From: Geosiphon pyriformis uo1
Taxonomy: Eukaryota > Fungi > Glomeromycota
Direction: 5' to 3'
NCBI GenBank assembly: GCA_016748015.1
Contig: JAAOMT010000086.1
Location: 12,983 to 76,982 of the forward strand
DNA: 64,000 nt
The translations under genes and the position numbers were made by a program. The notes under the pieces were generated by a model. The model was not told the origin of the DNA and ran no database searches. It worked only from the letters and a program-made list of their open reading frames with translations. Positions 3,250 through 60,635 of the stretch are shown here, in pieces. Positions within the stretch are counted from its first letter, which is position 1. Each line of letters opens with the position of its first letter.

Positions 3250-3660
3250 TTTGTCGATCCGAAACCAAAAGTTCCTCTCGTTGTTTGTAACAATTCCTCA
3301 TGATTTTCCACTGGCATGAATTTCCCAATTTTTACCAATGGTAGGAAAATTGCTTGTGCAATCTTTTCCTTAGATTCAATGGTATAAGGCTTTTCTGAAT
3401 TGTTCTGTAGCAAAACCATCAAATTTCCAGTGTATTCAGAATCAATTACTTCTCCTTGAATGCTTATTCCTTTTTTTGCGAAACTTGATCACAACACTAT
3501 TTGAACCATTATTCCTGGCAAAATTTTAACCACTATTTTTAGGTTGATTTTGGTAATGCTCCTGGATAGTAACGTTGTGGATTGGTCTTCCAGATAACAT
3601 AGATCGAATCCGGCATCAGTTGGATGGGCTTTTTCAGGTATTATTCCTAAGTGACTATTG
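3250..3660 (-). pseudogene. dUTPase domain of element A
   Basis: All five trimeric dUTPase motifs: DAGFDL, (R>*)SS, VIDSEYTG, IAQ, RGTFGFGST. Confidence 0.93.
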
Positions 3661-8073: not shown

Positions 8074-8850
8074 TTTGATAAATTGTTTAGTGTGGTTTTT
8101 GACCTGTCTAATGGCAAAGCTGCTGGTCTCTCAGATGTTTCAAATAAGCTTTGGAAGTATTATGACAAGTTAATCTTAGATATGCTTTTGGTGCTTTTGA
8201 ATTCTTGTTTATCTAATAAATCAGTGCTTGGGCCTTGAAAAGAGGCTTGGGTATTGATGATTCCCAAATCATATGAATGAGAAGGTGTTTTTACAAATAC
8301 TTGTTCTATTGCTTTGATTAAAACAGCTTGCAAGATTTTTTCCAAGATTTTTTTTGATAGAATTTCTTTGACATACAGCACTTTTGATGTTCTTTGTGGT
8401 GACAATTTTTTGGTTTTAAAAGGTATAACAATCCAATCTCCTATTTTTGCAATTGGGTCCATGGTTGAGAATGTTCTAGAAAAAAATTGAGAGTTATGAC
8501 TAGTCTTACAGGATATGCAGAAAGCATATAACTTAATTGGATGAGAGCATCTCAAGAAGAACTTGGTCAGAATTAAAATGTATGGCAAATTTATTAGGTT
8601 TTTTGGTAGTATTTATAGGGATTATACCAATCAAGTTATGACTGATTTCAGACTTATTATTGGTTACCATGTACATGATAGTTTGGACCAAGAAAAGGTT
8701 TTTTTCTGTCTTCTGTGACACATATTTTATGATCTCCTGTTTTGTAAAGTTAAGCATCAAGAAAATGTGTGTGGGTATAGACTGAATTCTTAGTTTATCA
8801 CCTGAAATGGTCATGCTGAATTTAGAGCTGATCTCAATTAAAATCTGCAA
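8074..8850 (+). mobile_element. Non-LTR (LINE) reverse transcriptase fragment
   Basis: Plus-strand translation through stops: GKAAGLSDVS, *KEAWVLMIPK, TCSIALIKTACKIFSKI, LQDMQKAYNLIGWEHL, DSLDQEKVFFCLL*HIFYD. Not shown in the ORF track. Confidence 0.88.
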
Positions 8851-9287: not shown

Positions 9288-10016
9288 TTAGAATTGAGTT
9301 TCTGCAAAATTATATGTATTTGATATAATAACTTCATTTATGTAGTGTTCAATTGTTGTGTTAAGTATTGTTTTTTATAGGTTCTCAAACCATTGATTAG
9401 TTATTCATTCTATGTTGTTAATTGTTATGGTTTTTATAGATCTATACACCAGTATATTTGGACAATGTTGGAAAGCAATGTACAATTAGTATGCTGTTTT
9501 ATAATATAACATCAAGTTGCTTCTTTCTATGAATTTTTCTACTTGTTGTATTGCTTTTTTGTTGAATGTTTTCTGGCTGAGGTCTTCATATAGTGTTTTC
9601 AAGTCAAGCTGTTCTCCAATTTTGTAGAACCAATAAGTTAACAAAAGTTTTTTTTTTTATTTTTGAGTGTTGTCTGGTGTCCATCCCCCTGTTTTGGGGA
9701 GATTGGTTTTTTGAGCTAAAGTCTTTTTGATTTCTTTGAGCTTGGAGACCAAGTATCTTTTTTTATAAAATACTTCTTGTTCCTTCACTCTTTCTCTTTC
9801 ATGTCCTGTCTGAAAGGAAGCTTTTTGCCAATTTTTTTTTTTGGATATTGTGAAAAGATAAGAATGGTTAGTTTCAATTAAACTTTCTTCTTTCTTGCTT
9901 CTGTCTTTGTATTGTATTTCTTTTTTATTAATTGTGATTTTTATTTGAGCATTGGATTGTTAAATCATGTCAAATAGTTGTTTTGAGAGTTGTAGAATTT
10001 AATCTGAAAGCTTCAT
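9288..10016 (-). pseudogene. ORF3 (unknown protein) of element B
   Basis: Frameshifted ORF MKLSD*ILQLSKQL...LLTYWFYKIGEQL...KTAY*LYIAFQHCPNIL...; aligns by eye with ORF3 of C. Confidence 0.7.
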
Positions 10017-13000
10017 GTTGGAAGTTTTATTAACTTATTTTTTTTTGTTGTTTCAGTAGTTATATATACTTAAATTTTTTCAGTTAAATAGTTGTGTATT
10101 AATTTTATGTTTTGATGATGATGATTGGTTCTAAATCTCATGATATATTTTCTGGTCTGATTAATAGAATTTGTGTTTCTAGTTGATGCATAGATGACAA
10201 TAACTGTTGTTTTGTATAATAAATTTTTAATTAGTTTCCATAAGCTACTTTCTTTAAAATCTTGTTTTCTAATCGTAATTTGTAAGCTCTATTTTCTAAC
10301 ACTTCTTGTATATAAAATAGACCATCACACTTTGGGTTAAACTTTTTACTTCATTGTTTTTTAGCTTTTATATGATGTAATAGTACTTGGTCTCAATCTT
10401 GAATTCCATTGGTTGCTTAGATAAACAGTTATCATATCTTTTTTTCTGTTGTTCTTGAGTATTACTAATATTGTTAGCTGCTGTTTTACAATTGCCTTCT
10501 AATGTTTCTATTAACTGGTATGTTTTTTGGTATAAGGTAGCTTCAAAATTTCTTTCTGTAATCATTTCAGTTGAGTATGACTGTATTTTTTGTTCAATAG
10601 ATAACATTGCTTTTTTTTCATAAACTAGTTCAAATAATATAAACTGAGTCATATTTTGCTTTAATGTTCAGTATGCTAGTAATACAGAAGATATGAATAA
10701 GTCCCATTCTTGTGTGTTTTCATAGCTTATTTTCACTAATACTTTACACAATGTTCAGTTAAATCATTCAACTAGTCCATTTGTTTACAGATAATATGAT
10801 AACAAAAAGGATCACTTTATTCCAAACTGTTGGCTTAATTCAGTCAGTGTACTATTAACAAAATACATTCCTTGGTCAGATAGCAATTTTTTCAGACATC
10901 TATGTCTACAAATCAGGTTTTGGTGTACAAACTCAGCTACTGTTTTAGCATCTGCTACTTGGATGGCTCTGGCTTTTAGCCATTTTGTTAAGTAGTCTAT
11001 GACTACAATAATGTATTGATTTCTCTTAGATGTTATAGAGAAAGAACCAACCAAATTGATCTCAATTCTATCAAATGAATTTCCAATTGGAATGGATTGA
11101 AGTGGTTCTGTTATTTTGGCTTTTTCTCTTTTTTGGCATGAATTATAATTAAAAATATACTCGAAAATATTCTTATATATTGTTGGCCAATAATATATGT
11201 TTATTGTTCTTTCTAAGGTAGTGTCTTTATTAAAGTGTCTTGCAGTTGGGTCTAAGTATATGCTATATAGAATAGTGTTCTTTTTACTGTCTTTTATAAC
11301 TTGCTGTGGAGTGATGTGGTTTTGTTATTCTCGATGGTATAGTTGATTGTTTTAAATAAAGTAGTTTCATGCTTGTTTTCATATAGTATTTTGTTCCTGT
11401 TAAGATAATATTTCTTGGAACTAAAGTGTTGATAAGTACTGCTGTATTTACTAATAAGGGATTGTGTTTATGATTTTGAATTAGATTTGTGGCATTCTCA
11501 ACAAACTGTTGGTATTGGTATTCTTTAATTCTTTTTTGTAGTAAACTTTGAGTGAGAATTGTTGTAGATAAGTACCCCATCTTACATATTTTCTTTTTAA
11601 TTGTGAATTATTGAATAACCAAATAAGTTCTTTGTAGTCGGTATATAAGTCAAATAGTTGACTAAGATAATGTTTCCAAGCTGTATGGCCCAATAAATAG
11701 TGAGACATTTTAAATCTATTGTACTATATATCTTTTCTGTGGAGTTAGTGCTGTGACTGGTGTAAACAATTGGATGTTCTCTTTTGTCCAGTCCTATTTA
11801 CAATAAGTCAGCTCCTAATGCATTTTTCAAGGCATCTGTAGCAACAATAGAATGTTTAGTGAAATTGAAATAAATTAATATAGGAGAGGTAATCAGTCAC
11901 TGCTTGAGATAGTCAAATGCTTTCTGTTAATCTTTCTTCTACAAATATGGTATGTATTTAGATAATAAGTAATGGAGTGGTTTTTGAGAATTTTTTGACA
12001 AATTGGTGATAGTATCATGCTAATTCTAAAAATTTTCATAATTTACACAGATTGATTGAGGCTGGAAAGTCTTTAACTTTTTGGATTTTGTCTGAATCAG
12101 ACTTAACTCTGTCTTTTCTGATCACTTGTTCTAAGAATTTCAGTTTGGTTTTTTTGAAAAAGCATTTGTTGGGATTAAGTTTTAATTCAGCATCTCAAAA
12201 GTGCTCAAACACTTGTTAAAGGTAAAGCAAATAGTCATTAAATGTTTCCAAGAACATGTTAGTATCATCCAGATAAACTACGACTGATTTCCAAAGAATT
12301 CCTTTGTATACTACATCCATAAGACATTGAAAAGTGGCAGAAGCATTACAAAGTCCAAAAAGCATCACATTGAACTCAAAATTGCTGTCTCAAATTGTAA
12401 ACACTGTTTTTTTTTTGTCTTTGAAGTCCATTTCAACTTGCCAATAACTACTTGCTAAATCTAATGATAAGAACTATTTCTTTTTTCTTAAATTGTCCAG
12501 AATTTCTTGGATAAGAGAAGTGAAATAACTATCTTTTCAAATGATGCTATTTAATTTTCAGTAATCTATACAGAATTGCACTTTTCTATTTTTCTTGGTA
12601 ACCAAGACTATTGGAGAAGACTAAGAGCTTAATAATTCTTTGATTAAAGATTATTAAGCATTTGTTGTACTTTTTGCTTAATTAAATTATCACCAAATAG
12701 AGGTACTTGGTAAGTTTATTGCTTAATAGGTCAAGTATTTCCTGTGTTGATTTGGTGTTTTACGATGTCTGTACATTGTAACTCATTTTTGCTGACAAAA
12801 ACATTGGCATACTGATTCAGAAGAACTTTGAGTTGTATTTGTTGCAGAGTACTTAAGTTTCCTAAATTTAATTTATTGATCTCTTCTGGTGTGAACAAGT
12901 AACTTTCTTTTGGCAAATTCCATACTTGTAAGATAATGTCACAGAACAAAAACAATTGCATGAAATCTAAAATGGGCTGAGATTTTTCTGAATTCTGAAT

Positions 13001-13297
13001 ATTTGGAGATATAAAACTAATAAGAGTTTCCTCCAGAATTTCTATAACATTTTTAGTCAGATTGTAAATGAGAATTTTAAAGTGTTTATAAGCCTTTGCG
13101 AATAAGTATAAGTTAGCAATATTGGCTAAAAAACAGATTTTGGGATCTGCTTTAAATAACAGAACTTGACTTTGGATTTTTCAGTTTACTTTAAGAATGT
13201 ATTGTCTGTATGGAGGAATGAAAATAATGGTATTAATGTAAATAAATTCTATTTTGTTACTGTCTTTCTCTGTGAAATTAACTGGTATATTTTTTTT

Positions 13298-13700
13298 TCT
13301 ACTTGATTTGAATCTATTGATTTTTCTGGTGATAAAACTTAACTTTTTGTAAGTAGTAACCAAAATTAATTGTGGTATTTTAATTAGGAACAGAAAGATA
13401 GCTTGGACTATTTTTTTATGTAATTCTATTTTGTAAGATTTATCTGAATTGTTCTGTAACATTGTAATAATGTTTCCCATGTAACTGGCATCAATAATTC
13501 CTCTTTTTACATTAATTCTCTTTTTTGCTAGACTGGATTAAGAGACAACTTGTACCATTGTACTAACTAGAATTTCTAGTGGTATTTTGAGATCTACTTT
13601 TACTAGGGAGTGTGAGGCTATAACTATGGGTAATTGTCCTGAGTATTATAAGTCAAAGCCAGCATTGGTCTTATGTGTTCTTTCAGAGCAAATTCTTTTA
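13298..13700 (-). pseudogene. dUTPase domain of element B
   Basis: NAGFDL, *SSLAKK, GIIDASYMG, IVQAIF, and a degenerate motif V. Confidence 0.88.
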
Positions 13701-17000: not shown

Positions 17001-17989
17001 TGTTACTAGTAGAATTTTAGCTATTAATTAGCACGAAATTATCTTCATAATTCTTATTATTAAGTAGCATATTATTATTATTTCAATTATTACTTATTAA
17101 TTAGCCAAATTATCAAATATTATTACTTAACTAATAACTCGATTTGTACTATAAAAATTAAAATGATCAAATTATACAATACCCTGAACCATTTAATATA
17201 GTCAAAATTGGCCAAAATTAATGAAAAATTGGCCGAAATAATTAATAATTTGTAGAAATAACTTGTAGTTCACCAAAATATATCTTAAGTTTAGTAAAAT
17301 TAGAGCAAAAAGAAAAGTGCAAGTTCAAAGACTAGTATTACAACAAGTTATATAAAAAAAGAGCTTCTCTTTTCAAGAAAATGTATTTTTTCATATCTTT
17401 TTATATCTTCTCATAGTATCTTAACATAATATCTTACTTTAGATATCTTAATTAAAACAAATTACTTTTTACATATTTCAAATAAAAATTAAATATTCGA
17501 AAACAAATCCTTAAAATTATTACACTTGAAATTCCCTTAACACAACTAATGTTTTGAAATTAATTAGCTACCAATTTCAATAATCTGTTAATGACTCTAG
17601 ACTTGGATAGAAAACGTTTTTTTTGACACAATTTTATTTCTTTTATATTTTGTTATTTTTCTTTTCTTTCTTATTATAATCATTTGGATAGTTTATGGAT
17701 GAAATTCCTATAGAAGAGTTGACTTTCACAGTAAAGTAACTACACATTTTTAGTAAGCTTCCAGACAAACAATTCCTGGGAAAGAGTTGACATTTTACTA
17801 CAATGTAACTACATAAAATAACTGGCAAGAAATTGGCTATTCCACTTATAAGCCCAGTGGTTCAAATTATAGAAGATAATTTAAATATAAATTCAGTTAC
17901 AAAAGGTCCAATTACTTCCTAAGAACATGAATTCATAGCAAATCAACATTAATAACATTCAAAAAAAGAAACTAAAACCTCCAGTAACA
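17001..17989 (+). repeat. 5' LTR of element C
   Basis: TGTTACTAG...CCAGTAACA; direct repeat of 26775-27733, roughly 85% identical by eye. Confidence 0.95.
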
Positions 17990-18087: not shown

Positions 18088-18951
18088 TGTTACTCATAAA
18101 ATATAGGAAGTATATTAACATATAAATTAGCCAATCAGAAGGAGACATAGTAAATGTGAAATTCCAGAATTTCTCTCAGAAGAATTACAGAATTCCAGGA
18201 ATTCCAAGATTCCTGGTGTGAAAAATTAAGGAATTGAGGAATCTCAATTATATATATATAGCAGTAGTATCAGAAGCTAGAAAATGAGTCAAATAGACTC
18301 CCAAAGTCAATTAGACTTAAAGTTAAAAAGACTGAGAGTCAGTCAGACTCTCAGAGTCAATTAGACTCGCAGGTCATAATTATTAAATACCCTTCCTTCA
18401 AAAGATAGAATACTATAACTTGAAGTGAAATCACTCTCATATTAATAAAATTATCCATTATCTTCAAATCCATGTTATTATCCACTACTTAATCTGCTGG
18501 CACAATAGCTCTTGATCATGGCTATTAACAGGACACTTATTTCTTATTTTATTTTCTTTATTTCGTTATTTTCTTTATTTTTCTTTATTTTATTTTCTTT
18601 TGTTGTTTACTAATTGATTAAAAAAATTAAGCACTGAGTTATTGATGTCAAGAATAGTCTGGTAAAAGACCCAGAAATAAGGATAGAATTATATATATTA
18701 ACAAATAGTTTACCAGAAAAGCACGACTGCCAGAATAAATCCGGCTGCCAAGCTGAGAAAGAAATTGGGCATAATTGCGACTCCAGGAAAACTACTACCA
18801 TCACCATTGAATCTCTGTCCATTATACAAAGAACTCAACCAAAATCTTTAGATAACAATACCTTCAGATATTACCAATAACATTATATCAATTGAGCACC
18901 AAGTTACAGGTTTGTTATTTGATTTGAAACCCCAAATAATCATCTGTAACA
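18088..18951 (+). mobile_element. Solo LTR (element-F family) inserted in gag of C
   Basis: TGTTAC...GTAACA with 4-bp TSD ACGC/ATGC. Removing it restores EYYQSIYAHCKQRF. Homologous to 28450-28795, 41900-42073 and 44763-45320. Confidence 0.92.
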
Positions 18952-21900
18952 ATGCACACTGCAAGCAAAGATTCAACATTCAAGACGGAATTGAAATTTT
19001 CAAGAAATTACTATACCAATATATTGAAAATTACATCAACAACTATTTTTTTGGAAACTATAATATTTCAGAAGTCAGAAACAACTTCTACAATAATTTA
19101 GTATACTATTTACAATTGGGAACAGATAACCTGAGCAGTAAAACACTTGTTACCTACTTCCAAGAATTTAATTTTAACATTATTAAGTATTGTGAAGGAA
19201 AATACCCAGTACAGTCCAAATACTTTTTTGACTTTGAATTAGAAACAGAAACATCTACCAAAGGCAAACAAAAAGTGAAACAATACTTAAGAACCACTCC
19301 AAACACTCCAATACTACCAAAAACAACTGCCAAACATTTGCAAACACCTGAACAAGAAACCAGTGTCAAATTACCACTTTCTATTACACTATTTCTAATT
19401 TTACTTATTCAATTACAAATACCAAATTCACCACTTAACCATTTCTCCAGACCAGAAGATTATTAGTTATTTAGAAATCCTACTCAATAGCAGAAACCCA
19501 TATCAACAAGCACCAATATTATTGATTACTTACAAAAAAACAAAAGTAATTATTCAGAAAACTTGGAAAGTGAAGAAACTGAATCAGAACAAGAAAACAA
19601 AGAAGAAATAGCAACTGCTTATATTGCAAAGATTCCAGAATTTACTGGTGAAGATAATGATACCAGCCCTTAAAAATGGCTTGACAAAGTTCAAAAAGCA
19701 GGAGATGCAAATGGTTGGAATACAGCAAAAATGCTCAAAGCAATCCCATACTTTCTCTAAGGAACTGTAAGAGAATGGTTTGAAAACTTAGAAGAACTAT
19801 TTAGAAATTGGCAAGCATTCAAAGATGCTTTTTTACAACAATTTACCAACAACAACACCTCTATCACTCTCTGCAATCACTTTTGCAATATCAAACAAGA
19901 AACATCTGAAACTGTTATGACTTATCTTAGGAGATTCAACAAACTTTTTTGATGAATTTAACAATTAGAAACCAATGAATACTATTCTGATGCCCAGATT
20001 TTGGATCAATTTATAATAGGATTAAAAGACAAATTGATTAAAAAAGTTTGTCCACATGCTCTAGCAGATTTAACAACAGCCATTAGACATACAAAGAACT
20101 ATAAAATGGCAATAGAAAAAACAAACCATACTAAACTTGTGAATCTTACTATTGAAGAAACCAGCTCAGCAGCTGAAAAAAAAATTGTTCAACTTACAAA
20201 GAAGATTGAAAACTATTTTACCAACTAGCAACAACAGCAACAACCACAAAGATATCAGCCACCACAATAACAAAACCAAACCAACTATTCATTATTATCA
20301 AATAATTAAAGCTAAAGTTGTCATTATTGTGGAATTCTAGGACATTGAAAACGAAATTGCAGAAAATTGTAAAGAGATCAACAAAACAGAAGTAATCAAC
20401 ATTACTCTCCATTACAACAAACTTATTACCAATTCCTACCACCAATTTATTGCCCACCAAAACCACAAAATCAAAACAATTACTATTAACCAGCTCCACA
20501 ACCAATATAGCAACAATATTAGCAATCTTTACCAATTCAGTAATATCAAACACCATCCACTTAACAATATCAAGTACCAGCCAGAAAATTGGTCCAACAA
20601 AACCAATTTACACCACAAAACCGTTTTTTAACAAACCACAAAAGATTTAATCCCAATAATCAACTAGTTTCCTGAAATTCTGTTCAACAAAGACCCATTC
20701 AGTTTCACACTTAACCCAGTTATTTAACAATACAAGAAAAATCAGATTTTCAACAAACTGCACTTTTTGAAGATGAAATTGTAGCACCAAAATCAAACTC
20801 TTTCAACAATACTATTCTATCAGCCCAAATTGCCCAAAATGCCAATTTTTCAGATATATTCCCATTCAAATTTGAAGCAAATGAATTACTATTCTTGCTT
20901 AGCAATGCAGCAGTCAATGAGCAAAAAGCTATCACTGCCATGTATACTAAAGCTACAGTAGAAAGAAAGCCTATTTGATTAATTCTAGACAATAGATCCA
21001 TTGGAAGTATTATCACCTACCAATTAATGCAATAACTCAATCAAAATGTCGACAGACCAGCCCAAACAGTAATTGTTACAGCAGATAGTATGCAAAAAAC
21101 ACCAATAGAAGAAATTAACAACTTTCCATTTACTATTGATGGAATTACTATTTCAGTTAAAGCTCTAGTCATAGATGTACCTCAATACCAAACTTTTGTT
21201 GGAAATGATTAGCTTCTTAAGGCCAATACAAACTTAGACTGGGAAACTCAGGAGCTAAAAATCTCATATCAAGAACATTACACCATAGTATCTGCTACTT
21301 GTGATACTTTTAACAAATGATCAGAAAAAGCCCCAGTATTCGAATTTGAGAAGAAGAAAAAAATGCCACTTACTGAGACCTACATGGCTCTTGGATCAAC
21401 ATCCAATTGGGCTGAGGAAACAGAATAAGAAATTTTTAAAAAATCAAGAAGATAGAAGAAAGTTAAGTATTTTACACCAGAACCACGAAAAGAACCATCA
21501 TACATTCTACTAAAATACAAAGATTGCAAAAAGAAGCTTTTATCTATGAGAGCCTATATTTCTTCAAAAGAAGAATATGAAACTTGCATTTGCTACTTCT
21601 GCAAAGCATGCCATAGAGAACAATTTGGATCCCCAAAAAGAAGTGGAAAATAAAACAACACACCTTGTCTCACATATAGAAATATGCTACTAGAAGAATG
21701 CAACTGGATTGATGCTGCAATGAGAGGAGAAGTATGTAATCAAACCTGTTAATATGCTCTATTAATTTCGAAAAAAGTCAGAAAAGAAACACTATTTAAT
21801 GCAGCATGCAACAGTGCTCTCAATAAATTTTACCACTATCTTTATGATGCTGAAATGATTTTTGACTTAGTAATGGCATTAATTAATAGAGCCACCCAAA

Positions 21901-22264
21901 AAAATATCTGCCAAATAAAAGAAGCTAAATACATTGAGTATACTATGAAATTAGCTGGATTTGATTATAAAAATGAAATAGAAACCTACCACCAAATTAC
22001 AAGTCATACATACCCAACCAAAGAAGCTTAAATTCAATGATTAAAGTAAATAAACATTCAATTATGTGAAGAATGTGTTATGTCTTGTGATGATCAATGG
22101 TGTTTAGAATGCTATGCTTTTAGCATTCCCCTGCCATACAAAAATGATAAAAATAAAATCGAATTTAAAGTATCTGAACTGGTAAAAAAACTACCAATCA
22201 CTCCTATCTATCTTCTTAAAAATCAACTATCTTTACAACTCAAATATTTTAACAACTATGGCCA

Positions 22265-22660
22265 AAGAATCAGATCAGAAAAAACACACGAGATTAATGC
22301 TAGATATGATCTAAGATACCCAGAAAAAAATACTTTCATTCTCTAACCAAAGTCTGACAAAAATCAATCTAAAAATCACTTTTAAAATTCCACCTAAAGC
22401 AATAGTTTAAATTGCATCTAGATCATTATTGGCAAGCAAAGAAATCAATGTTAGAGAAGGAATCATAAATGCAAAATATACTGGAAACATTATCATTATA
22501 TTGCAAAATGAAACAGACAAACCATTTAGGATTGAACATGCTGGAAAAATTGCCCAAGCAATTTACCTATTCTTAATCAACATTTCGGGTTTACAATCAG
22601 TTAACAACAGAGAACAATTGGAAAAAAGTAAAAGAGGAATACAAGGTTTTGGTTTAACTG
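22265..22660 (+). pseudogene. dUTPase domain of element C
   Basis: NARYDLRY, SRSLLAS, GIINAKYTG, IAQAIY, RGIQGFGLT. Confidence 0.9.
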
Positions 22661-25600
22661 AACGATTTACAGTACCAGTAAACATAGCTCTCAATGTACA
22701 GATTAAATCTTACCAGATTCTTCAACTTCTCCAACCAATTACCATTTCACTTTTTGGAAAACATCAAAAAATTTACACTTGCTCAAAACCCACCACCATT
22801 CAACAAATCTTTGAATCCAATGAACATATTTGTTTAAAACATGAAATCTCAATCCCAAATGTTTATATTCCCAAAGGAATGAAAAAATTTTGAGTTATAT
22901 TCTACAATTTTAATAATTATCCTATTGTCTTATTGAACAAATTAGAGATTGGAATCATACACAGTAATATCTTTCAAGATAAAAACCCTCAAATTGTTTT
23001 TAATTTTATCGAAATTATAAAACATATATTACTTTCAAATCTGAACATTATTTCTACTACTGAAAACTACTACTTTTTGGAAGAAAAACTTTTTTAAATT
23101 AACATGGATCTCTTAGAACCCTAACAACAAAGACAATTGAAACAACTAATAGCTGAATATGCAGATATATTTGCAAAAAACAACAATGACTTTGGAAAAA
23201 CTGATATTGTTCAATATCAGATCCATACAGGAGATGCTTCACCAAAATGCCAATCAGCCTATCAAGTTCCACCTGCTAGCCACCAATTTATCAGAGAAGA
23301 GATCCAAAGAATGCTCAATAACGGATTGATTCAACCATCAAGAAGTTCTTAGGCCTCACCAGTAGTCCTTATTAAAAAAAAAAACAGAAAAATCAGATTC
23401 TGTGTAGATTATCATTAGCTTAACAGTGTAACAATTAGAAATGTCTACCCTCTTTCAAGAAGTAATAACGTGCTAGATGCCTTAGGAAAAGCCAAGTTCT
23501 TCTTAACTTTAAATTTGGAAAGTGGATACTGACAAGTCGAAATGGACCCAAAACAGCATTTACCACCCAAAGAGGGAACTATAAGTTCAATGTTATGCCT
23601 TTTGGACTCTCTAATACACCAGCAACATTCCAATAACTTATGGATGTTGTATATAAAAAACTCTTGTGGCAATTAGTAGTTGTTTATTTTGATGACACTA
23701 ATGTGTATTCCTCAAGCTTTAAAGCTTATTTCATTCATCTGCAAAAAATTTTTCAACAATTATAGAAAGCAGGATTAAAATTGAACATTGAGAAATATCA
23801 CTTTGGAAAAACAAGTTTAATTTTTTTTGAACATATTATTAGCAAAGATAGAGTCAAACCAAATTTTAGAACAATCAGTGCTGTCAAAAACTTTTAAACC
23901 TCCAAAAATACCACAGAACTATTAAAATTTGTAAGATTAACTTCTTACTATTAAAAATTCATAAAAAAATTTTCAAAAATTGCCAAACCACTTAATTATC
24001 TCATCAACAAAAACGTGTTATATTAATAGACTGAAGAACAACAAAAAGCTTTTGAAATCCTCAAAACAAAATTGACAACAGCCTCAGTTCTTGTTTATCC
24101 AGACTTTAACAAATGGTTCCAACTAGCCACTGATGTCTCACATATAGCATTTGGTGCCATTTTATCACAATTAAATAAAAATTGCCAAAAACAAATCATT
24201 GCCTATACCAGTAGAACACTTAAGCTAACAGAACTCAAATATGGCTCAACTGAATTAAAAGCTGCTACTGTCATTTGGACTATTAAACATTTTCAACAAT
24301 ATTTGAAAAATAAAAAAGAATTTAACATTATAACTGACAATATTGGCCTCAAATAGCTCAATAAAAAAAAACCAAACAAAGTACCAAACAGTCTTAATAG
24401 AATGATTTTCTAGCAGACTACAAATATATTGTATATTACAAACCAGAAAAACTACACATCAATGTTGATAGCCTCTCAAGAATAAGACAAAATTAACACT
24501 ATCAACAAACTCACTACAACTTACCAACTTACTAACAAAATAACAAAACAACAATAGATCCCAGAAATTACAACAATCTTAAAAACTATTTGAACACTTT
24601 TACCATACCAAAAAATTGGTCTCCAAGTAAAAAACATTAATTACAACACCAATTCAAACAATATTTCATACACCACAACAAAATCTATTACAAAAATTGC
24701 AGAAATCCAAACCAACTACTCAGATTAATACAGGAAAATGAAAATAAAACAATTCTATACAACATGCACACAGATTCTTCTTCAGCACACTTGAGAAGAA
24801 ATAGAACAATTCAAAGAACTCTTGAACATTATTTTTGGTCTCATATGCAAAAAGACATTCAACAATATATAGAATTTTGTGATAGTTGTTAAAGAAGAAG
24901 AGAAACTCGTCCCACAAAACCTTTAAATCCAATCAAAGTTGAACAATCTTTTGACAAAGTTAGAATTGATTTAATTAGACCATTACCTATTACAACCCAA
25001 GGAAATTGTTATATTGCAGTTGCAGTAGATTATCTCACCAAATGACCTGAAGTTAAAGCTATCCAAAAAGCAGATGCAAAATCAATAACAAATTTTATCT
25101 ATAAAGACATTATTTGTAAACATGAATGCCTAATTGAACTTTTATCTGATCAAGAAACACATTTTGTGAACAACTTGATACAAGAAATTTGTGAATGATT
25201 CAATGTCAAAAGATCTCTATCTTCACCCTATCACCCCTAAACAAATAGACTTATAGAACATTTCAACAAAACATTGTGTAAATCTTTAGCCAAAGTCTCA
25301 ACAAATTTTGAGCAAGAATAAGATATCTTTATTCCATTAGTGTTACTAGTATACAGAACACTAAAACAAAATACTACAAAACATATACCATTTGATCTTA
25401 CTTATGAAAAAACAGCAACATTACCAATTAATTTTACAGTGGAAACTTACCTAGTACAACCAATCAATAAAGAAATTTTTCAAGAAACATTCTAAAGAAG
25501 AGCTTATACTCTTCTTAGTATATTGGAGGGAAAGAGACACATAGCAGCCACTTATATTGAACACTTTCAAGCCCTATAAAAAGAAAAACATGACAACAAA

Positions 25601-26086
25601 CTGCCACCAATGACCAACAAATTTAAAGTTGGAAATAAAGTTCTCTTATACAAAATTAAGGCTGAAAAACAATGGAGTGGAAAATTTGAACATAAATAGG
25701 ATAAACCATTTTATATTCACGAAATTCTAGGCAATGGATTATAAAAATTAAGACTTGATGACAAAGTACTAGTAAAAGTTGCACATAGAGATTAATTAAA
25801 ACACTATCACTTCAAAAACAATCCTGAATTATTAATTCCACAAATTAATACACATTTTTCTTTAATTAATTCTGAAAATATTCCCCGAAATTTAGAACCA
25901 ATAATTATAATAGAACAACAACCAAACATGAACACTTAATTTAACAGAATTTTACAATAATTTTTTTAATAACACAAAAACAAAAATAGTAAAAAAATTA
26001 CAAAAAACACCCAAACCCAAAAACAAATAAAACCCCATATCTAAAAATAATTTTCTTTATTCTTTTTATTAATTAACTATTTTATT

Positions 26087-26764
26087 ATGATTATTCCCCA
26101 AAATATTCAACAAATATCTCAAAAATTAATATTAACTTTGAAAACACTTTCTGACTTATTCATAATAATTAATGGAAGTCAAATTAATTACATTCAGAAA
26201 GAAACCACAGCCCCAGTAGCAAATAATTCTCAGAATTATCACTCCTATAAAAAAAAAACAAGAAGTTACTCTGGAAATCAATTACCAGAACTTTTGAAGC
26301 AAGCACTAAAAGAAAACTTTTTATTTGCTCCTATTGACAGTCCATCAAATATCACAATACAACAGAAACTTTTACTATTCCTTAATAAACAGAACAATAA
26401 ACATACTCTTATATATAGATATTTTCATATTGGAAAAACATTTTATGAACAAAAACTGGAACTTGAAACAACCAACATCACTCTTAAGACTATATAAAAA
26501 CAAATTCACAATAAATTCAAAACAGCAGCTAGACCAACAAATATTCGCTACAAACTTAGAGCAGCATTTAGACTCTATGATTTATTCAATACTTGTGAAA
26601 ACGTCCTACAAAACCCAATACTCTACACAATAAAGATTCAATATATTAGAAAGCTCACAGAACTGAAATTTCAACAATTTTCAGACCAAATCATTTCAAT
26701 TATTTTGGATTACTATCTTGACATTACAGATAGTGTTTGGACTTTGACAGAACTTAATTTTAAG
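26087..26764 (+). pseudogene. ORF3 (unknown, ~225 aa) of element C
   Basis: ORF 26087..26497 continues in the same frame past one TAA (KQIHNKF...RAAFRLYDLFNTCENVL...ELNF*) to the PPT. Confidence 0.78.
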
Positions 26765-26774
26765 AAGAAGATTA

Positions 26775-27733
26775 TGTTATCAGTAGAATTTTAGCTATTA
26801 ATTAGCATGAAATTATTCTCATAATTCCTATTATTAATTATTATTTCGATTATCACTTATTATTTAATCAAATTATCAAATATCATTACTCAATCAATAA
26901 TTCGATTTGTACTATAGAAATTAAGATAATCAAATTACACAATACCCAGAACCATTTAACATAGCCAAAATTCGCCGAAATTAATGAAAATTGGCCGAAA
27001 TAATCAATAGTTTAGTGAAATAATTTGTAGTTTGCCAAAATATATCTTTAATTCACCCAAATTGTAGCAAAAAGAAAAGTACAAGTTCAAAGACTAGTAC
27101 TACAACAAGTTGTATAAAAAAAGAGCTTCTCTCTTCAAGAAAATGTATTTTTTCATAGTATTTTATTATAGTATCTTACTTTAAATATCTTAATTACAAC
27201 AAATTATCTTTTACAAATCAAATAAAAATTAAAAGTTCAAAAACCAAATCTTTAAAATTATTACACTTAAAATTCCATCAATACAACTAACATTTTGAAA
27301 TTGATTAACTACCAATTTCAGTAATCTGTTAATGACTTCAGGTCTGGATAGAAAATGTTTTCCTTAATATGATTCTATTTTTTTTACATTTCTTTTATTT
27401 TTCCTTTTTTTTTCTTATTATAATTATTAGGATAGCCTATAGACAAAATTTTTGTAAAAGAGTTGACTTTTACAGCAAAATAACTACACAATTTTAGTGA
27501 GCTTCCAGATGAGCAATTCTTGAAAAAGAGTTGACATTTACTACAATATAACTACATAAAATAACTGGCAAGAAATTGGCTATTGTACTTATAAGTCCAG
27601 CAGTTCAAATTATAGGAGATAATTTGAAGATAAATTCAATTACTGGAGATCTAACTACTTTCTAAGAACATGAATTCACAGCAAATCAACATTAATAACA
27701 TTCAAAAAAAGAGACCAAAAATCTCTGATAATA
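26775..27733 (+). repeat. 3' LTR of element C
   Basis: TGTTATCAG...CTGATAATA, preceded by PPT AAGAAGAAGA. Confidence 0.95.
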
Positions 27734-32300: not shown

Positions 32301-35219
32301 ATTTTGTATTCTTTTAGTAATGAATACAAGTTTTGTCTGATCTATTACAAAGATTGGGAGCCAATTAATTTAATACCCAAAAAACAACTAAAAGAAATAC
32401 AAAAATTCTTTGAAAATAAACCATCTGAAATCCAATTACTAGTTATAGAACAAAGCAAATCTTCCTTTAAAGAAAAAAAAATAGACATTGAAAATCTGTT
32501 GGCTAGAAATAGCCCAATTATTTCAAAAAAAGATAACACCTCTGGACAAACTCATGTAATACAACATACTATTACCACCAAAGAAACTTGTTCCATCCAT
32601 TTAAAGCCTTATCAATCCAATCAACAAAATAATAAATTCATCAAAAAAAAAATAAACCAGATGAAAAATTTTGGATTTATACAAAAAACCAAAAGTAAAT
32701 AGACTTTCTCAGTTGTAGTGGTATCCAAGAAAGGTGGAACTCTATGTTTCTGTGTCGACTACTACTAATTAAATGCCATCACTATAAGAGACATGTATCC
32801 ACTCCCTAAAATTAATGCAATGCTAGATAAATTCAATAGTGCTGTTTTCTTTTCAATTATTGACTTAACTGCTGGATTTTGACAAGTAGAAATAGATCCA
32901 AAAAGCAGAAAAAAAACTGCTTTCATTACCAAGTATGGCACCTATAAATTCACAGTCATGCCTTTTGGTCTCACCAATATTTCTCCTATCTTTCAATGTC
33001 TAATAGACAAAGTATTTGAATTAGTAAAAGAAAACTTTGTTCTGGTCTACTTAGATAACATAATAGTATACTCAAAAATCTATGATAAACATCTTGAACA
33101 TTTGCAAAAAGTTTTTGACCTGCTCAGAAATGCTGGTCTTAAGATTAATCCAATCAAATTTTTCTTTGGACATCAATTCACCCAGTTTCTTGGTTATCTT
33201 ATTACAAAAAACGGAATCTTTCCTAACCCAGCTAAAATTAAAAAAGTTCAAAACATTAAACAACCAATAAACGTTTTTGAACTATGCTTTTTCCTTAGTT
33301 TGGCTTTCTACTATTGCAAATTTATCAAAAATCTTTCTAAAATCGCCTTTTCTCTCAATCAGCTACTCAGAAAAAATGTCAATTATTACTGGAACACTTA
33401 TTAACAAAAAGCTTTTGAAATTTTGAAAAAAAAAGTTGTTACTGAACCAATTCTTAAACAATCTAATCTGAACCAATTTTTTATTCTCTATACTGATACA
33501 TCTGGCTATAAACTTGGTGCTGTTCTCTTACAAAAAAATAAAAACAGCAGAGAAAATGCTATAGCATATGCCAATAGATCCCTCATACCAACAAAAAAGA
33601 ACTATTCAATAACTAAACAAGAATACTTAGCAGTAGTTTGGGCTACTAGTTACTGAGATCAATATTTTCTTAATGTAAAATTTTTAATGGTAACAGATTA
33701 TCAAGCCTTGGTTTGGCTGCACAATAAAAAGAAGCTGAAACACAAATAAATAACTCACTAAATACTTCACTTGAATGAATTCAACTATGATATTCAATAC
33801 CACAAAAAAACAAATCATCAAAATGCCAATGTTTTTTCTAGACTTATCATCCAATAATAGTACAAGCTTCTCAAACCAAACCAACTTAATTATTAATAAC
33901 TCTCCTTTTAACAAACACAATAATAAACTTAGACAACTACTCTGCTTTAATAGAATTTTTAGGTAAAAGACAATACCTATCAGAATACACTAAACAACAA
34001 AGAGAACATTTGTGCAAACAATCAAATTTTTATTTGATCTGCTAGAACCAAATATATAAAAAAACAGAAAAAATCCTGACTGTCCTTAAAGAGTCATCAG
34101 GTTTAAAAAAAAAGAAATTGTGATCTACAACATGTACACTAATTTATTAGCTGGACATTTTAGAAAACAAAAACAATTCAAAAAACTTTAATTCACTATT
34201 ATTGGCCTACCTTAGGAAAAAACATTGTTGAATACATTAAAATATGTAACATTTGCTAAAAAAAAAACAAATCCAATTACAAAAAAGATATCCATCCAAT
34301 CTCTGTTGGTCAACCATTTAACAGAATTGGTATAGATGTTGTTGGATCTTTAACAATAACTCCTAATGGCAACAGATATGTTATCACAGCTACTGATTAT
34401 CTTATAAAATAAATAGAAACAAGAGCTACTCCAAACCAAACAGCAGTTTTAATAGCCAATTTTATTTATGAAAATATTATCTACTATTATGGCTGCCTTA
34501 AAAAACTTTTATCTGATAAAAGAAGAGCTTTTCTTAGTACACTAGTTCAAAAACTTTGTAGAAAAATGGGAATATGTCATAAATTTTTTTTTTTTACCAC
34601 TCCTAAACAAATGATCTAATAGAATGTTTCAATAGAACACTATGTAAAACTCTAGCCAAAACCAGTAAAAAAACAAACTTATAGGACAAAGTACTGCCTT
34701 CAGCTTTGTTTGCTTATAGAACTATAAATCATAACATTACAAGTTATGAACCTTTTTATTTGCTCTATGGATACATGACAACAGTACCAATAGAAACTGA
34801 CATTGAAACAATACTCTTTGAAAAAATTACAATAAAAAATTATAAAAACATTTTGTAAATAAAACTTAGTACTAGTCGTGACTTCTTAATAAAAGCACAA
34901 ATAGTTGCTTTTGAAAAGATAAAACAGTTTCAAGAAAAGCTTAAAAAGAAAAAAATCTATAAAACACTTTTTTTAAATATTGGAGACTTGATATTAGAAT
35001 ATTGTTTAGACAAAAACAATGTCTATAGTAATAAATTTTCTAACCAGTAAAATAAACTCTTTTTAGTCAATAAAGTTTTAAACAATGGTTTTTATATTCT
35101 TCAAGATCAATTCAAAACAATCTTTAATAATTATTTTGTTTATGGTACATGATTTAAGAAATATTATAAACAACTTGATTGATTGTCTGTTGTGATAATA
35201 CCAACCCAAATGATCAGTT

Positions 35220-35900
35220 AAAATCAAGTATAAATAAATGCATCATTCTCAAAACAGAGGTATTTTCAATTAATATAAACAATTATTTTCTAGATTAAAA
35301 CATTCAAAACACCTTCTATACTTTCTATGAGTATTGAATTAAAAACTATCCAAATGCTATTCTGACTATTGGAAAACAAATCACTATAACTAATAACAGT
35401 AAAACACATACTGTTATTAGACCAAAGAAAACTACTATCAGAAAAGAAAAAATTGGTAGCAAAATAGATAAATATCTATTAGAAAGTATAACAGCAGCTA
35501 TATTCTCACTTTCTAGCACAATTGAAAAAACAATCCAAAAAATCTTGTTCATAGACAAAAATTTGTCATATGGAAGACAATTAGAACTCTATGATCACAT
35601 TAGAAAAATTATAAAAGATATGAAACTCATGAAGAAAACAACTTCAGAAATACAAACAGAAATTTTGGGCATTATATAATTAGATGTCTTAAGAGTTTTA
35701 ACTATTGCTAAAAGAACCAAAACTCTAATACAAAGATTTGATTTTTTAGATACAAAACTTATTTTGTCTCAAGTATTATATATTCTATTCACAAAAGATT
35801 TCAACAAACTAGTTAGCTTTGAGTTAGATAAAACTCTTCAAATAGATTATATCATGAATAGCTTAATTTTGCCAGAGCTCAATTTCTTTGGAAAAAATGA
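35220..35900 (+). pseudogene. ORF3 (unknown) of element D
   Basis: Long frame with few stops: ...QLELYDHIRKII...LTIAKRTKTLIQRF...FTKDFNKLV...PELNF. Same position as ORF3 in B and C, with weak motif similarity. Confidence 0.6.
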
Positions 35901-36567
35901 TATTATTGTTGAAATCTATACTTTTTATTAATTATTATATGTATTAGCCACTGATGTCATATAATTAACCACTCTATTTTTAAATAGTGATCATTAAACT
36001 AATTATTGACCTAGTTGTTGACTTGATTATTGACCACTTTTAATAGCTATATAAGTGATAAATCTTTTAGCTATAGAAAAACATGTAAGAATCAAAGAAA
36101 GAAAAAAAATAAAATAACAACTTCATTTTAATTCTGTTTTTATTACTAAATTTTTTTTCCTTACTTTCAAGTATCTGAACATTTTAGAATAAAAAATTAC
36201 TTGTTGGCATTTATTTACTCTTTTATTAACTTGTATAATTGTAGTATTTGAAGATTATTAAATAAAATGTGACTAAAAAATACATTTAATATCTAATATT
36301 GAATTCTAAGAATGCTGACATGAGACATAGAATTATACCAGTGTGTGATCATTTGTTGACAGTATAAACTATTCTTTTATCTTTAGATTCTTTGGTTATC
36401 TATTAAAAAAATATAACAACTGAGATATTTTATGAAACTAATCTCATATATTGAATTTAAACTCATTTAATTTGCTCTTTGATATTGAATTTCCTTCGAT
36501 TTTTTTTATCACCCTACAATTCTATTCTCTCTTGCTATTTATTAGCTTGTTATTCCAACCCATAACA
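35901..36567 (+). repeat. 3' LTR of element D
   Basis: Starts TATTATTG after GGAAAAAATGA; last ~45 bp match 29541-29585. Confidence 0.8.
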
Positions 36568-39500
36568 GTATTAAACTCTCATACCAATAATTTATTAACC
36601 ACTACAGCCACAAATAATCTATCAAATCTCATAAATTCAAACACTACTTTAAACTACTATATCAATTGAAAACCAAAAACTAAAGATTATGTACACTCAA
36701 CAAAACTAAAGATTAGTAATAGTAATATACCAACCAATTTCCAGTTTATTAAGCCAGCCATCAAGATTATGTTTCAGAAATTTGGAAAATAAGTACATTT
36801 AAAACCCAAATTCCCAGAATTATTTAAGTTTTTTGGTTACTCCAGAAAATATCCAATTTAACAACCTAGAAACTAGCAAACCACTTATCAATAACATTTT
36901 ACTAGCAATTATTATTAAAGATAAATTACTTGTTACCATATTTTTATTTGAATTAGAAGAGTTATTAATCACACCTCTATTCAGTAAAGTTACTTTCAAT
37001 ACTAAACCAATTATTATCATGTATATTGACACTAAAGTTAATAACTACTTTATTAAGCTAATTTTAGATAGTGGCTTAGCAGGCAGTATAATCACAAGAC
37101 AATTCATGGACTAATTAGATTGTTAAATTAATCAAGTGGCTAGCACTAAAATTATTATTGCTAATGAAATAACAAAAACTTCAATTAGCAAAATTGATGA
37201 TTTTCTGTTTGAAGTCAATAGTATTATTGCACCAATTAAGATTTTTATCATAGAAGCCACCCAATACCAAGCTCTTATTAGTAATAACTGGCTGTCCAAG
37301 ACTAATATTGTTTTTGACTGGACCATTCAAAAGCTACAGTTTAGTCAAAATAGTTAACAAACTTAGATATCAGTTACTTGTGGCCACTTTAAAACAACTA
37401 CTACTACCCAATTATAGCTATTGATAAAATTTAAAGAAAAAAAAAAACCTATTTGAAAAGTCTACCAAGTTTTATGGATTAACAATAACCACAACAAATT
37501 ACTACCAATTTTTTCTTGGGATAACAAAAGAAAGAAAAAAGAAGAAAACAAACCACCAGCCACCACCAACACAAACAAAACAGTAAACAATTGACATATA
37601 CTGTACTCTATAGACACCAAGAAAGAACTGCCATATATTTTACTTAGGTGTATTAATTGCAAAAAAAAGTTTTTATCTATAGAAGCTTGGATATTCCCAA
37701 ACAAAAATTACTGGATGCATATTTATTACTATTGTAAATCATGCCACAGAAAACACTATGACTACTTAAAAAGACAAAAAAAATAAGACAATAAACTATG
37801 TTTTATTTACAAAAAAACATTGTTCAATAAAGAAATATAGAATAATATTCTTGAACAAAAAAAACATGTAATATATCATATTAATACATAATTCTTATTA
37901 GTAACTGGATGAACTAAGAAACACTTTTTAATGCTATATAAAACTAAGCACACACATGCTTAAAAAGCTATTTACATAATAAAAACAAGATCTGAAAAAT
38001 GGCAAGTGCCAAAGTTGAAGCTATTTTACCCAGTAAGATATTCACAATCAAAAACAACCCACTTAAATCTGTTAAAACCATTTTCATTTCCAATCTAGAT
38101 ATATTTCTTAACATCCTGAATAATCCAGAGCAATTTCACAAACACTACCAAGATTTAGCACTTACTAAAAAAAAACAAAAGCAGCATTTAAAACAATTAA
38201 ACACTAGATTTTATAGGCATTGTCTAATTCTAAGTAACTTTGAATATTATAATAATTATAATATTGTTTACAATTTACTATCATATATAATTTATTCAAT
38301 TTCTGAAGAAAAACTAATTAGCAGCTATACAGCAAAATTGAAATCAAATTTTAATTGTCATTTAAACTTTAATAATAATAACAACAACAATTTTAATTCT
38401 ATTTAAAATAGCAACAGTAATAATAATAATTCAAATTCTAAACAATATATTATACTTTCAGATCTTTCAAAAGAACAGAAACTAAAATAGTTTAGCAATA
38501 ATGATAAAAATATTATGTTAAAACATGTGTATGATACTGATATAGAATTTGATTTCAAGTACCCAAAAAAAACTGCTATTAGATTAGAACCATATTTGCA
38601 CACCAATATTAATTTAAAAATAACACTGAAAATTTCAGCAATTATAATAATACAATTAGTGTCTAGATTTAGTTTAGCAAAAAGAGGAATCAATATTAAA
38701 GAAGAAATAATTAATGCAGAATATATAAAATATATTATTGCAATACTACAAAATAAATCAAAAAAAGCATATATTATTAAGCCAAATAAAAAAATAACAT
38801 AGTCAATATTTCTATTTTTAATAAAAATAGCTTAGTTAATGCCAATAGAAACAAAAAAAAAGTTAAAAATTACTGCTAAAAGAATAAATAAATTTGAATC
38901 TACAGATAGAATAGAGATACTAGTTAATATAATAGAAAAAAAAACTATTAATTAAGAAGAAATTATTTTTACTAATCAAATAATTTTTATTCTACTATAT
39001 GACCAATATTTAGTAGTTATAGAAAGTAAAGTGAAGGGTCAGTTCCAAATTTTTGAAGCAAAACATCCTATTTGTAAATCAGAAAAGATTGTCATCACTA
39101 ATTTTTATATACTAACCAAAAATTATAAACACATCAAAATTTCCATATACAATACAACTGAAGTCCCAATCAAAGTACTAAGTAGAACTATTATTAGATA
39201 TTTAAGCACTAAAGTTAAGAACCAATTACCAATTACTATTCCAGATTTTTCACAATTTTATGGATATATAGATATTATTTCACAAATAATATACAAATGA
39301 AAAGAATGTTATTTGTTACAACTAGAACAATTGGAGCAAATAAACTTAAAAAACTTAAATTCACTTTAAAGTATATAACTTAAGCTATTATTTAACAATT
39401 TCACTAACATTTTTGCCAGTAAAAACAAATTTAGCAGAACTAACATTATCTAATACCAAATTAAAGTTAGAGATACTATGCCAATAAAACAAAAAACATA

Positions 39501-45789: not shown

Positions 45790-48385
45790 TGAAAGTGCTT
45801 ACTAATTTGGTCAAAAGTGTTTTTATTTGTATAATTAATACCAATAAAAAAATTCAGATCTGAAAAAAAGATACTTAAATCAAAAAAATTTTTGATCATT
45901 AAATATAAATAAATGAAAATTTTATTACCTATTGAAAATATAAAGTTTAAGATTAATTGACTTTTATATCTTGTTGTATCATGTTAAAAATTTTTTATCT
46001 CTTCAGAATAAAGTTTTTTTTTACAGACAAATTTATTTAAGTTACAAATATTGTGAACAGCAATAACTCTTTGTTAAAGTTTTTTTGCAGTATTATAATA
46101 TTGTGAATTACATTGCCAATTTTTTTCAATTTTTTCTTAAATACACTGAAATATATGTTTCTGGATTGTAAGACACTTTTTTTTAATTACATTATGTAGT
46201 ATATAAATAAAATCTGTATTATTTAAAGATCTTTTTCCTGATATAATTTTACATAAAATGATAGCAAAGCTGTATATATTGTTATACTTAGTATAAAAAC
46301 TACTCTTGCAAATTTTAGGTGCAAGATATTTGAAAACATTATAAGTGTTTCAGATTGTAAAACATTATCTGCAAAATGACAGAGTTTAAAATCAGAAATA
46401 ACAATTTTTAAGAGATTTGTTATCAAAACAAAAATATTTCCAGAATGTAAGTCTTCATGTATTAGTTCTAATTTATACATAAACTTTAACCCACCAGCAA
46501 TTTGAAAAAAATACGAAAAAACATGTCCTAATTAAAAATATCTTTGTTAGACTTAAGAAAAGCTTTAAAGTCTCCATGTTTCACAAATAATAAAATCATA
46601 ATAAATTTATTAGTTGTAAGATTTCTGGTTATTCCATAGTATTCAAAAATGTATTTACAAGTAGTACTTTAATAATGTGTAATAAGCTATATAAATACAG
46701 TCTTTAGTTTAAAAAAAAATTGGAATAATAAAAATCACATAGATTTTTTAAAAGAAAATACCATATCTGAATTAATATATTTTATATTTTGTCTATTTTA
46801 AGATATTTCAAAGCAATTTTTGTAATTCCAGTTTGTTCATACTTTTGAATTTTTTTGTCCCAAAATAGAATTCTACTATTTTTCTATCTATTTTTTTTTA
46901 TAATACCAAATCTTTCCATTCCTACTTGATTTAAATGTATAATATTATTAGGAAAAATCTATTTCAAACAGCCTCTGCAGTTTTCAAAATTATGCTATAT
47001 ATATAATATATACTGATTAATATTATTATTTTTACTATTTCATGTTCTCCAAATATTTAAAAATCGTAATGATTTACAAGAATTATATCAAACTAGATTT
47101 TTTAATACAATATAATATTTTGAACATTTCAGCAAACCTGTTTCAAAAACATTATCATTACTATTATTAATATTACAAAATAAACATATAGAAGATTTAT
47201 TAATGATTATACTCAAGTTGCTATATTTAAAACACTTGAATTCATATAAAAGCTGATTAAAAAAAGCTTCAAAATCTAAAAATTCTCTATTAAAATTATT
47301 GAAGTATTTAAAACTTCAATTTTGAAATTGTAAAATGATATATTCAAGATTGTTTTAGTCTTTTAAGAAAAGATTATAAACATTCAAATTAGTAAAATTA
47401 CTTGATAATATAAGTTATTTGCTCTTGCTGTTTTTAAATAGAGTTTAAATGCTTTTTGAAAACTTTTTATGATTTCCCATTCATTTTAATAATACTATTC
47501 AAAATTATATTATATATTTTGATTTCTTGTCTCTGTTGTTTTTAAATAAAATTAAAATGTTTTTTCATAATTTTTCACTATTTTTTATTCATTTTAATAA
47601 TATGTTCTAATACTAATTTGTGAATTCAGATTTCTTACTTTTTCTAAATCTTTTTGCTTCCAATTATTTTCGATAATATGCTTTAAGAGTAATTGGTCCA
47701 AGTAAATATCTCATCTTTGCAACTTTTGAATAAAGTTCAAATGCTATTTTCTCATTTTTTGTCATTTTTTTTTCATTAGCATAACAAATTACAAGATTGT
47801 ATTCTGTATCTATATGTTCTGTCTCTGCAACTTTTAAATAAAGCTCAAATATTACATCTAAATATTCTGTTTCTGCAACTTTTAAATAAAGTTCAAATGC
47901 TTTTTTCTCGTTTTTTGTCATTTTTTTCCATTATCATAACAAAATACAAGGTTGTATTGTATATCTAAATGTCCCATTTTTGCAGTTTTTGAATAAAATT
48001 CAAATGCTTTTCCTTGATTTTTTGAAGTACTAATTTTATTATTATAACAATAACCTAAGAAAAATTGTCCAAAAGAATTTTCTGTATTTGCTGCTTTTGT
48101 TAAATTAGGAGTAGTTTTAATTTCATGTTCTAAACAAAAACTAAGCAAGATATTATCTATTAAACATTTTAGATTTTTATTATTCAAGTAATTGAATAAG
48201 TTTTTAGGAATTTTCTGATTACTTACAAGATAATTTTTAACTATGTTGACAACTTTTGAATATTTACTAGCTAAAAAAATAGGCAAACTTTTATTAATAA
48301 CTATGAATGTTCTTTTAAGCCAGTTGAGAAATGAAATTGAGTTTTCAATTAATAATTTTAAAGACATAATTTTCAAGCAACACAA
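45790..48385 (-). pseudogene. Sel1-repeat plus TKL-type protein kinase pseudogene
   Basis: Sel1 repeats (GQFFLGYCY, KAFELYLKVAE, YNLVICY) at 47664-48385. Kinase LIHEDLHSGNIFV and ISDFKLC at 46223-46480. Many stops and frameshifts. Confidence 0.85.
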
Positions 48386-48699
48386 ATAAATTATTAAATT
48401 TTGAATGTTTTATATGAATAAAGTTTTGCTAATAAATAAGGATTTTAAATTTTCAAAAAAGCTAAATTTAAAACATTAGAAAGTTCTGAAAATAGACTTT
48501 TATTTTATTTCTTTATTTAAATAGTTTAAACAAATAGAAATTGTTTAAAACTTAAATGATCACATAGAATATAAAAAAATAACTATTTTTATTAATGTTT
48601 TATTGCTATTTTTAAATGAAAACCTAAAGTTAGATTATAGTTTATTGGTTTTAATAGCTAATTAATAAATTTCTTGAATATATAATCTAGTTCAATGAT

Positions 48700-60625: not shown

Positions 60626-60634
60626 GAAAGATAT

Positions 60635-60635
<1 letters not shown>

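Follow-up and report, generated by a model that had tools for sequence, protein, structure and literature searches.

LTR retrotransposons normally carry gag and pol, and some carry env as well; in errantiviruses Env is encoded directly after integrase. Genes other than env are also known from the interval between pol and the 3' LTR. Bdelloid elements have extra sense ORF3s there that encode non-Env proteins of DEDDy, GDSL, TM or coiled-coil type (PMC5408684), and the plant Retand elements have lineage-wide, antisense TRP28 ORFs in the same interval, with predicted DNA-binding products proposed as regulators (PMC11963269). Fungal Gypsy elements are described with an extra ORF of unknown function, and with a dUTPase that lies between PR and RT (PMC2864245). 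A regulatory precedent is the foamy-virus Tas gene, a small 3' gene made apart from gag-pol that acts on the LTR and an internal promoter (PMC8670036, PMC4929722 and PMC13220597), a scheme that the gene described here would share. Extra ORF3s are thus already known; a search of openly available papers found no description of the present ORF3 family.

The 64,000-nucleotide stretch of Geosiphon pyriformis DNA analysed here (the window) is AT-rich and packed with decayed Gypsy elements, with A and B on the minus strand and C, D and E on the plus strand. Both LTRs are identifiable only in C among C, B and D, and this element shows the Ty3/Gypsy order PR-RT-RH-IN between LTRs, with a PBS and a PPT. 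Its features are as follows.

17001..17987, plus strand: 5' LTR of C, its right end approximate; a TGG stretch resembling a PBS comes next
18852..24496, plus strand: decayed gag-PR-dUTPase-RT-RNase H region (left end approximate)
24494..24496, plus strand: RNase H stop
24554..25939, plus strand: integrase, a separate decayed ORF (start at about 24554, stop 25937-25939)
25940..26086, plus strand: IN-ORF3 spacer, AT-rich (16% GC) and ATG-free, a candidate internal promoter or leader
26087..26794, plus strand: ORF3, 235 codons, interrupted once by a stop (codon 137)
26749..26771, plus strand: conserved DNA motif and PPT, within ORF3
26775..27730, plus strand: 3' LTR of C (right end approximate)

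Because its two LTRs are only 83.6% identical, C is an old copy. The sequences 3' of ORF3 in B and D have no match to the LTRs of C, in keeping with the dissimilar LTRs reported by the first-pass annotation. Four elements (A, B, C and E) have a dUTPase between their protease and RT (window 3030-3488, 13097-13537, 22423-22869 and 38671-39111); no dUTPase match was obtained for D. By tblastx the same four share a conserved stretch of several hundred codons that separates protease from dUTPase (about 21200-22300 in C), and cysteine-rich motifs are visible in gene models of this interval. The Gag of C has an N-terminal extension of about 250 codons ahead of its capsid-like part (18852-19700) that gave no Pfam match; pieces of it recur near 28731, upstream of D, and near 42009, directly after the integrase of E, an element that lacks an ORF3 there. 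Elsewhere the window holds an open frame of 150 codons without a Pfam match (8160-8612, minus strand, between the 3' end of B and the gag of A), Sel1-repeat gene fragments (47400-48409, minus strand, and about 57550-57750; Pfam Sel1 E 7e-6, 108-nt repeats) and tandem arrays with periods of 57 nt and 9 nt (49946-50687 and 60562-60944).

The first-pass annotation had described a sense frame after integrase in C, B and D that ends at the PPT. Such frames are present, with lengths of 218-242 codons, and all three are broken. The corresponding regions of B and D are:

9288..10016, minus strand: ORF3 of B, 242 codons with 6 internal stops
10105..11483, minus strand: RNase H stop (11483) and integrase (stop at 10107) of B
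33855..35206, plus strand: RNase H stop (33855) and integrase of D
35275..35931, plus strand: ORF3 of D, 218 codons with 3 internal stops and a decayed start (ATA)

The frame ends at the PPT in B alone; those of C and D cross the PPT into the 3' LTR. In C the stop codon (26792-26794) lies beyond the LTR start at 26775, so that the frame extends 20 nt inside the 3' LTR. The overlap of ORF3 with PPT and U3 in C and D, and the integrase carried as a separate ORF, are differences from the additional ORF3s of other elements. The final 20 codons of ORF3 overlap conserved DNA signals. A GGAGCTCAAT-like motif stands directly 5' of the PPT in C, B and D (window 26749-26771; 9302-9278, minus strand; about 35873-35900) and in L001, a metagenomic locus from another sample (about 3090-3114), and is probably a cis signal for plus-strand priming. 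The last ORF3 residues read ELNF or ELSL in C, D and the metagenome members, and GAQF or GAQY in B and others. Because this single DNA motif is read in different frames by different subfamilies, the shared C-terminal residues are not protein evidence, and we dropped the ELNF/GAQF match as such.

The ORF3s of B and C are homologous by sequence comparison: their local alignment score has z=11, none of 2000 shuffles scored as well, and the B and C family profiles matched in HHalign at 94% (E 1.2e-7). The place of D in what had been put forward as a three-element family is borderline. In window comparisons C-D gave z=4.5 (4 of 2000 shuffles as good) and B-D z=2. HHalign of D against C, B or the joint profile was not significant, the C+B profile gave E 1.7 against D, and D copies were at chance level against B, F, C2 and M2. 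The D profile scored z=4.4 against the joint profile (0/150), and 11 of 20 D copies exceeded z=4 against the metagenomic member P0177, as did 0/20 against each of seven decoys; the shared C-terminal residues were excluded from both of these tests. A BLASTP alignment of P0214 to P0177, with the C-terminus included, is colinear and full-length (24% identity over 216 columns, pairwise E 2e-4). The order and spacing of predicted elements (H, E, E, H, H, H, H, H) are the same in the D and P0177 models, that of D being of low confidence (pLDDT 39). We consider it likely that the ORF3 of D is a distant member of the family.

Integrase was found as a separate ORF, outside any single Pol polyprotein, in all five window elements and in L001 (6/6). 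The RNase H frame stops 4 codons past its conserved end in A-E and 3 codons past it in L001, at the following positions:

1418/1386, minus strand: RNase H stop of A, with integrase following
11483, minus strand: RNase H stop of B
24494, 33855 and 40722: RNase H stops of C, D and E
772-799 of L001: RNase H stop of the metagenomic locus, with integrase following

The distance from this stop to the start of integrase is 24-57 nt in C, A and L001; the integrase ATG is intact in L001 and also in A, where it lies in another frame. The near-intact L001 runs RT-RH, stop, IN (with one internal stop), a spacer of 316 nt, an unbroken ORF3 of 230 codons, motif, PPT and LTR. Since RNase H has a separate end, integrase its own start and ORF3 its own frame, the element has three predicted cistrons, namely Gag-PR-dUTPase-RT-RH, a free integrase and ORF3. 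The linkage to integrase raised in the first-pass annotation held among database proteins. An ORF3 match is present in 322 proteins. Their N-terminus is extended by at least 35 residues in 47 cases, and in 44 of these 47 the extension matches integrase; such proteins are gene models that have taken in the adjacent frame. Among the C-, B- and D-type models tested, each ORF3 type is mostly paired with its own integrase type. ORF3 is an accessory gene that has been passed on together with integrase in a lineage of fungal Gypsy elements bearing a dUTPase.

The same arrangement bears on a reading of ORF3 as an adaptor for the free integrase, which would carry it into the particle or nucleus, or tether the integration complex to chromatin in place of a chromodomain. 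An integrase encoded in a separate ORF cannot be packaged within Gag-Pol, which applies to the integrase of these elements, and Pfam detected no chromodomain on the integrase of A. The pairing of ORF3 and integrase types and a PY-NLS-like linker in ORF3 (described below) are also consistent with this role. However, adjacency alone predicts co-inheritance, and we regard an adaptor function as unlikely.

The spacer 5' of ORF3 measures 84-316 nt and has 16-26% GC. In L001 the heptamer TTGCCCT occurs twice in the spacer (2258-2285) and three times, with two variants, in the LTR (3403-3590), all on one strand. None of 2000 shuffles yielded any such shared 7-mer, for a motif picked after inspection in this one element; C, B and D have no counterpart shared between spacer and LTR. 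The sites in L001 suggest an internal promoter that shares sites with the LTR.

The family is large in Geosiphon. Searches with ORF3 of C returned 201 relatives among 461 candidates and those with B 24 among 175; all 120 matches listed for C and all 24 for B are G. pyriformis hypothetical proteins. The D-led profile retained 137 of 2733 candidates, 117 of the 120 matches listed being D-type. Many of the G. pyriformis hypothetical proteins among P0001-P0322 are chimeric models in which ORF3 is spliced to pieces of integrase, gag, protease or LINEs. When 1.84 billion representatives were searched with a profile, 69 matched, which added subfamilies F, G and H; the 10 matches looked up comprise 8 Geosiphon and 2 metagenomic proteins. 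Searches of phages and plasmids by tblastn gave no ORF3 match, and viral contigs gave none for ORF3 or integrase. The top Atlas match for P0205 is a eukaryotic cluster of 98 members (190 aa; commonest phylum Mucoromycota; 0.93, 173/256 features), which, as a match with no alignment behind it, is a lead to a family wider than Geosiphon. Identity between ORF3 subfamilies is about 23-37% (about 64-65% for C1/C2), and RT-RH identity between elements is 38-52%.

Selection was examined in 66 near-full-length C copies (27 C1, 39 C2) at the protein level and not by codon dN/dS, in annotated models biased towards open frames. Fixed differences between C1 and C2 occupy 12 of 80 outgroup-conserved columns versus 23 of 67 others (p=0.007) and are more conservative than private changes (p=0.016). 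Departures within subfamilies are equally frequent at conserved and other columns (6.3% and 6.3%), and private changes are mostly of the G>A and C>T type. Because fixed differences avoid conserved columns and private ones do not, ORF3 was selected during element replication and decays after insertion. In neutral simulations a frame survived unbroken in 2-11 of 2000 runs when identity was 64%, and in 0 of 2000 at 30%. We conclude that ORF3 has been under purifying selection in the replicating lineages, as judged from these protein sequences.

Where the changes fall is relevant to the possibility that ORF3 counters host silencing, by DNA methylation or small RNAs, through protein contacts and not nucleic-acid binding. 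Low identity between subfamilies fits such an antagonist. So do the small RNAs and variable methylation of Rhizophagus Gypsy elements (10.1101/2021.03.30.436303) and the 41.2% of the G. pyriformis genome made up of LTR elements (PMC11952901). The fixed differences lie mostly in residues 20-105, however, and only 3 fall in residues 140-200; the core is the most conserved part and bears no sign of an arms race, and no similarity to a known suppressor was found. We hold this role to be improbable, and the first-pass suggestion of an anti-silencing protein gained no evidence, while its description of a lineage-wide, helical, non-Env protein outside any named family was borne out.

ORF3 shares its position with errantivirus Env but differs in being a soluble protein of about 230 aa with neither a TM anchor nor a furin site. 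Across 52 proteins the highest 19-residue Kyte-Doolittle mean was 0.4-1.4 by subfamily (1.79 in one D copy), which agrees with the missing anchor noted in the earlier reading, and the R-X-K/R-R furin site had a mean count of 0.0 in each subfamily. No Env-type cysteine pattern was seen in ORF3. As a proxy for a signal peptide, the best 11-residue hydropathy mean in the first 40 residues was 0.2-1.4; an Env leader can come from a spliced exon. The AF2 model is that of a soluble protein. For P0177 it has pLDDT 79.9 and pTM 0.65, with 85-96 in the core. A head of one helix and a beta-hairpin (residues 7-38) leads into a basic, disordered linker (41-51) and then a single helix (54-67). The core begins with helices at 82-93, 100-119, 126-141 and 146-160 and closes with a long helix preceded by two short ones. 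The subfamilies share Y-x-Y in the second core helix, G-K-T-N ahead of the fourth, A..L-Y..F inside that fourth helix, and L167 and N..G..T..F beyond it. A remnant of Env, or a frame without function that the PPT and neighbouring cis signals hold open, would account for the env position and for the overlap of the last 20 codons with conserved DNA. Such an origin is contradicted by the selection and open-frame tests, by the confident predicted fold and by the lack of a TM helix, furin site or cysteine pattern, and its probability is close to negligible.

Family searches placed ORF3 in no described family, as the first-pass annotation had supposed. No Pfam family matched at E ≤ 0.001, which together with the absence of an enzyme or TM domain separates ORF3 from the additional ORF3s of bdelloids, and the lack of a matching Pfam family likewise separates it from the TRP28 ORFs. 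In particular, no DEDDy- or GDSL-type alpha/beta catalytic domain was found by Pfam, and the modelled core is all-helical. PHROGs (best 0.0012) and PDB sequences gave nothing at E ≤ 0.001, nor did Foldseek against PDB and BFVD viral structures, where the N-terminal 70 residues were barely covered. VIA returned no row at Z of at least 5, the best (4.5-4.7) being to designed helical proteins. A homodimer prediction, made without an alignment, scored 0.01.

The helix order of the core (three helices, short, short, long) resembles that of ParB/KorB-type HTH domains, including DUF1016_N (PF17761) and DUF3102 (PF11300), whereas the scores are below significance and ORF3 adds the helix/beta-hairpin head and the PY linker. 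Among the weak Pfam matches DUF1016_N recurs most often, in 5 of 27 members with a best E of 0.015, and it aligns in register (P 0.08-0.13). HHalign of ORF3, a comparison of low power, gave P 0.59 for ParB (PF17762), 0.08 for DUF1016_N and 0.15 for DUF3102; among controls ParB against DUF1016_N reached 92.5%, and DUF3102 against either only P 0.04. In VIA the KorB, Spo0J and ParB DNA-binding domains (1r71, 1vz0, 6s6h) scored Z 3.4, 3.4 and 3.2 over 96, 95 and 59 residues (rmsd 5.0, 5.3 and 3.1), level with unrelated rows, with three such domains among 50 rows. These model-based hints are weak and level with noise, and we do not file ORF3 as a ParB-family member.

The linker carries an R/H/K-X2-5-PY sequence, in a segment of pLDDT below 50, in 6 of the 8 subfamilies examined (seen in the C1, C2, B, F, M1 and M2 representatives), versus 1.5-4.3% per sequence by chance. 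It is absent from all 20 D sequences and from both G-type models checked, and among 66 C copies it is intact in only 28, decayed copies reading LY or SY. The sequence corresponds to the C-terminal consensus of the PY-NLS (PMC2408616), so the linker is likely PY-NLS-like, with predicted nuclear import. The helices at 120-160 have a net charge of +7 in P0177 and +3 in P0173, and the conserved G-K-T-N precedes the third helix there. With its HTH-like modelled core, basic third helix and PY-NLS-like linker, ORF3 is plausibly a nucleic-acid-binding protein. The basic pI of Geosiphon copies was rejected as evidence; E>K is the commonest decay change (111 counts) and inflates it, and the intact metagenome members have an acidic overall pI of about 5.5.

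RNA could be the ligand. ORF3 might export unspliced RNA as Rev does, or coat genomic RNA so that it can move through coenocytic hyphae. A three-cistron element needs several RNAs, and PY-NLS cargoes often bind RNA. A coat-like protein is also hinted at by an Atlas feature match to Closter_coat (PF01785; rank 2, 0.93, 154/256 shared) and by a VIA row to a protein of a filamentous archaeal virus (Z 3.8 over 67 residues, rmsd 3.3). Yet 4-10% of shuffled proteins also reach Atlas scores of at least 0.9, and fewer than 170 features are shared; Foldseek found nothing among viral structures at E ≤ 0.001, and PF01785 is absent from the members' Pfam rows shown. We judge an RNA-binding or coat-like role quite unlikely.

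The reading we prefer, by analogy with foamy-virus Tas and with a probability of roughly 0.45, is that ORF3 is a nuclear HTH-type DNA-binding regulator of its element's own transcription. ORF3 would be translated from its own RNA, internally initiated or spliced, and imported by transportin via the PY linker. It would then bind short repeated sites in the LTR and the IN-ORF3 spacer, contacting DNA with the basic helix after the conserved GKTN turn, and would in this way control LTR and internal-promoter activity in the manner of Tas. Unlike Tas, ORF3 belongs to a fungal element that has no env, and no match between the two was found in sequence or fold; DNA binding and transactivation by ORF3 are our inference. 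In a bolder and doubtful form of the proposal, these are three-cistron 'complex' retrotransposons whose ORF3 is a ParB-like HTH transactivator with a PY-NLS driving LTR and internal promoter. This would be an envelope-free fungal convergence on the Tas circuit. It would be common to elements of Mucoromycota and might have driven the burst of LTR elements that now occupies 41% of the Geosiphon genome.

That selection has kept a soluble third gene across elements whose RTs are only 40-50% identical suggests a layer of regulation of the kind seen in complex retroviruses. Since the element also has its integrase in a frame of its own, downstream-cistron expression and the delivery of integrase to the particle become testable. 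For G. pyriformis itself, hundreds of 'hypothetical proteins' are decayed copies of one retrotransposon gene and not host genes.
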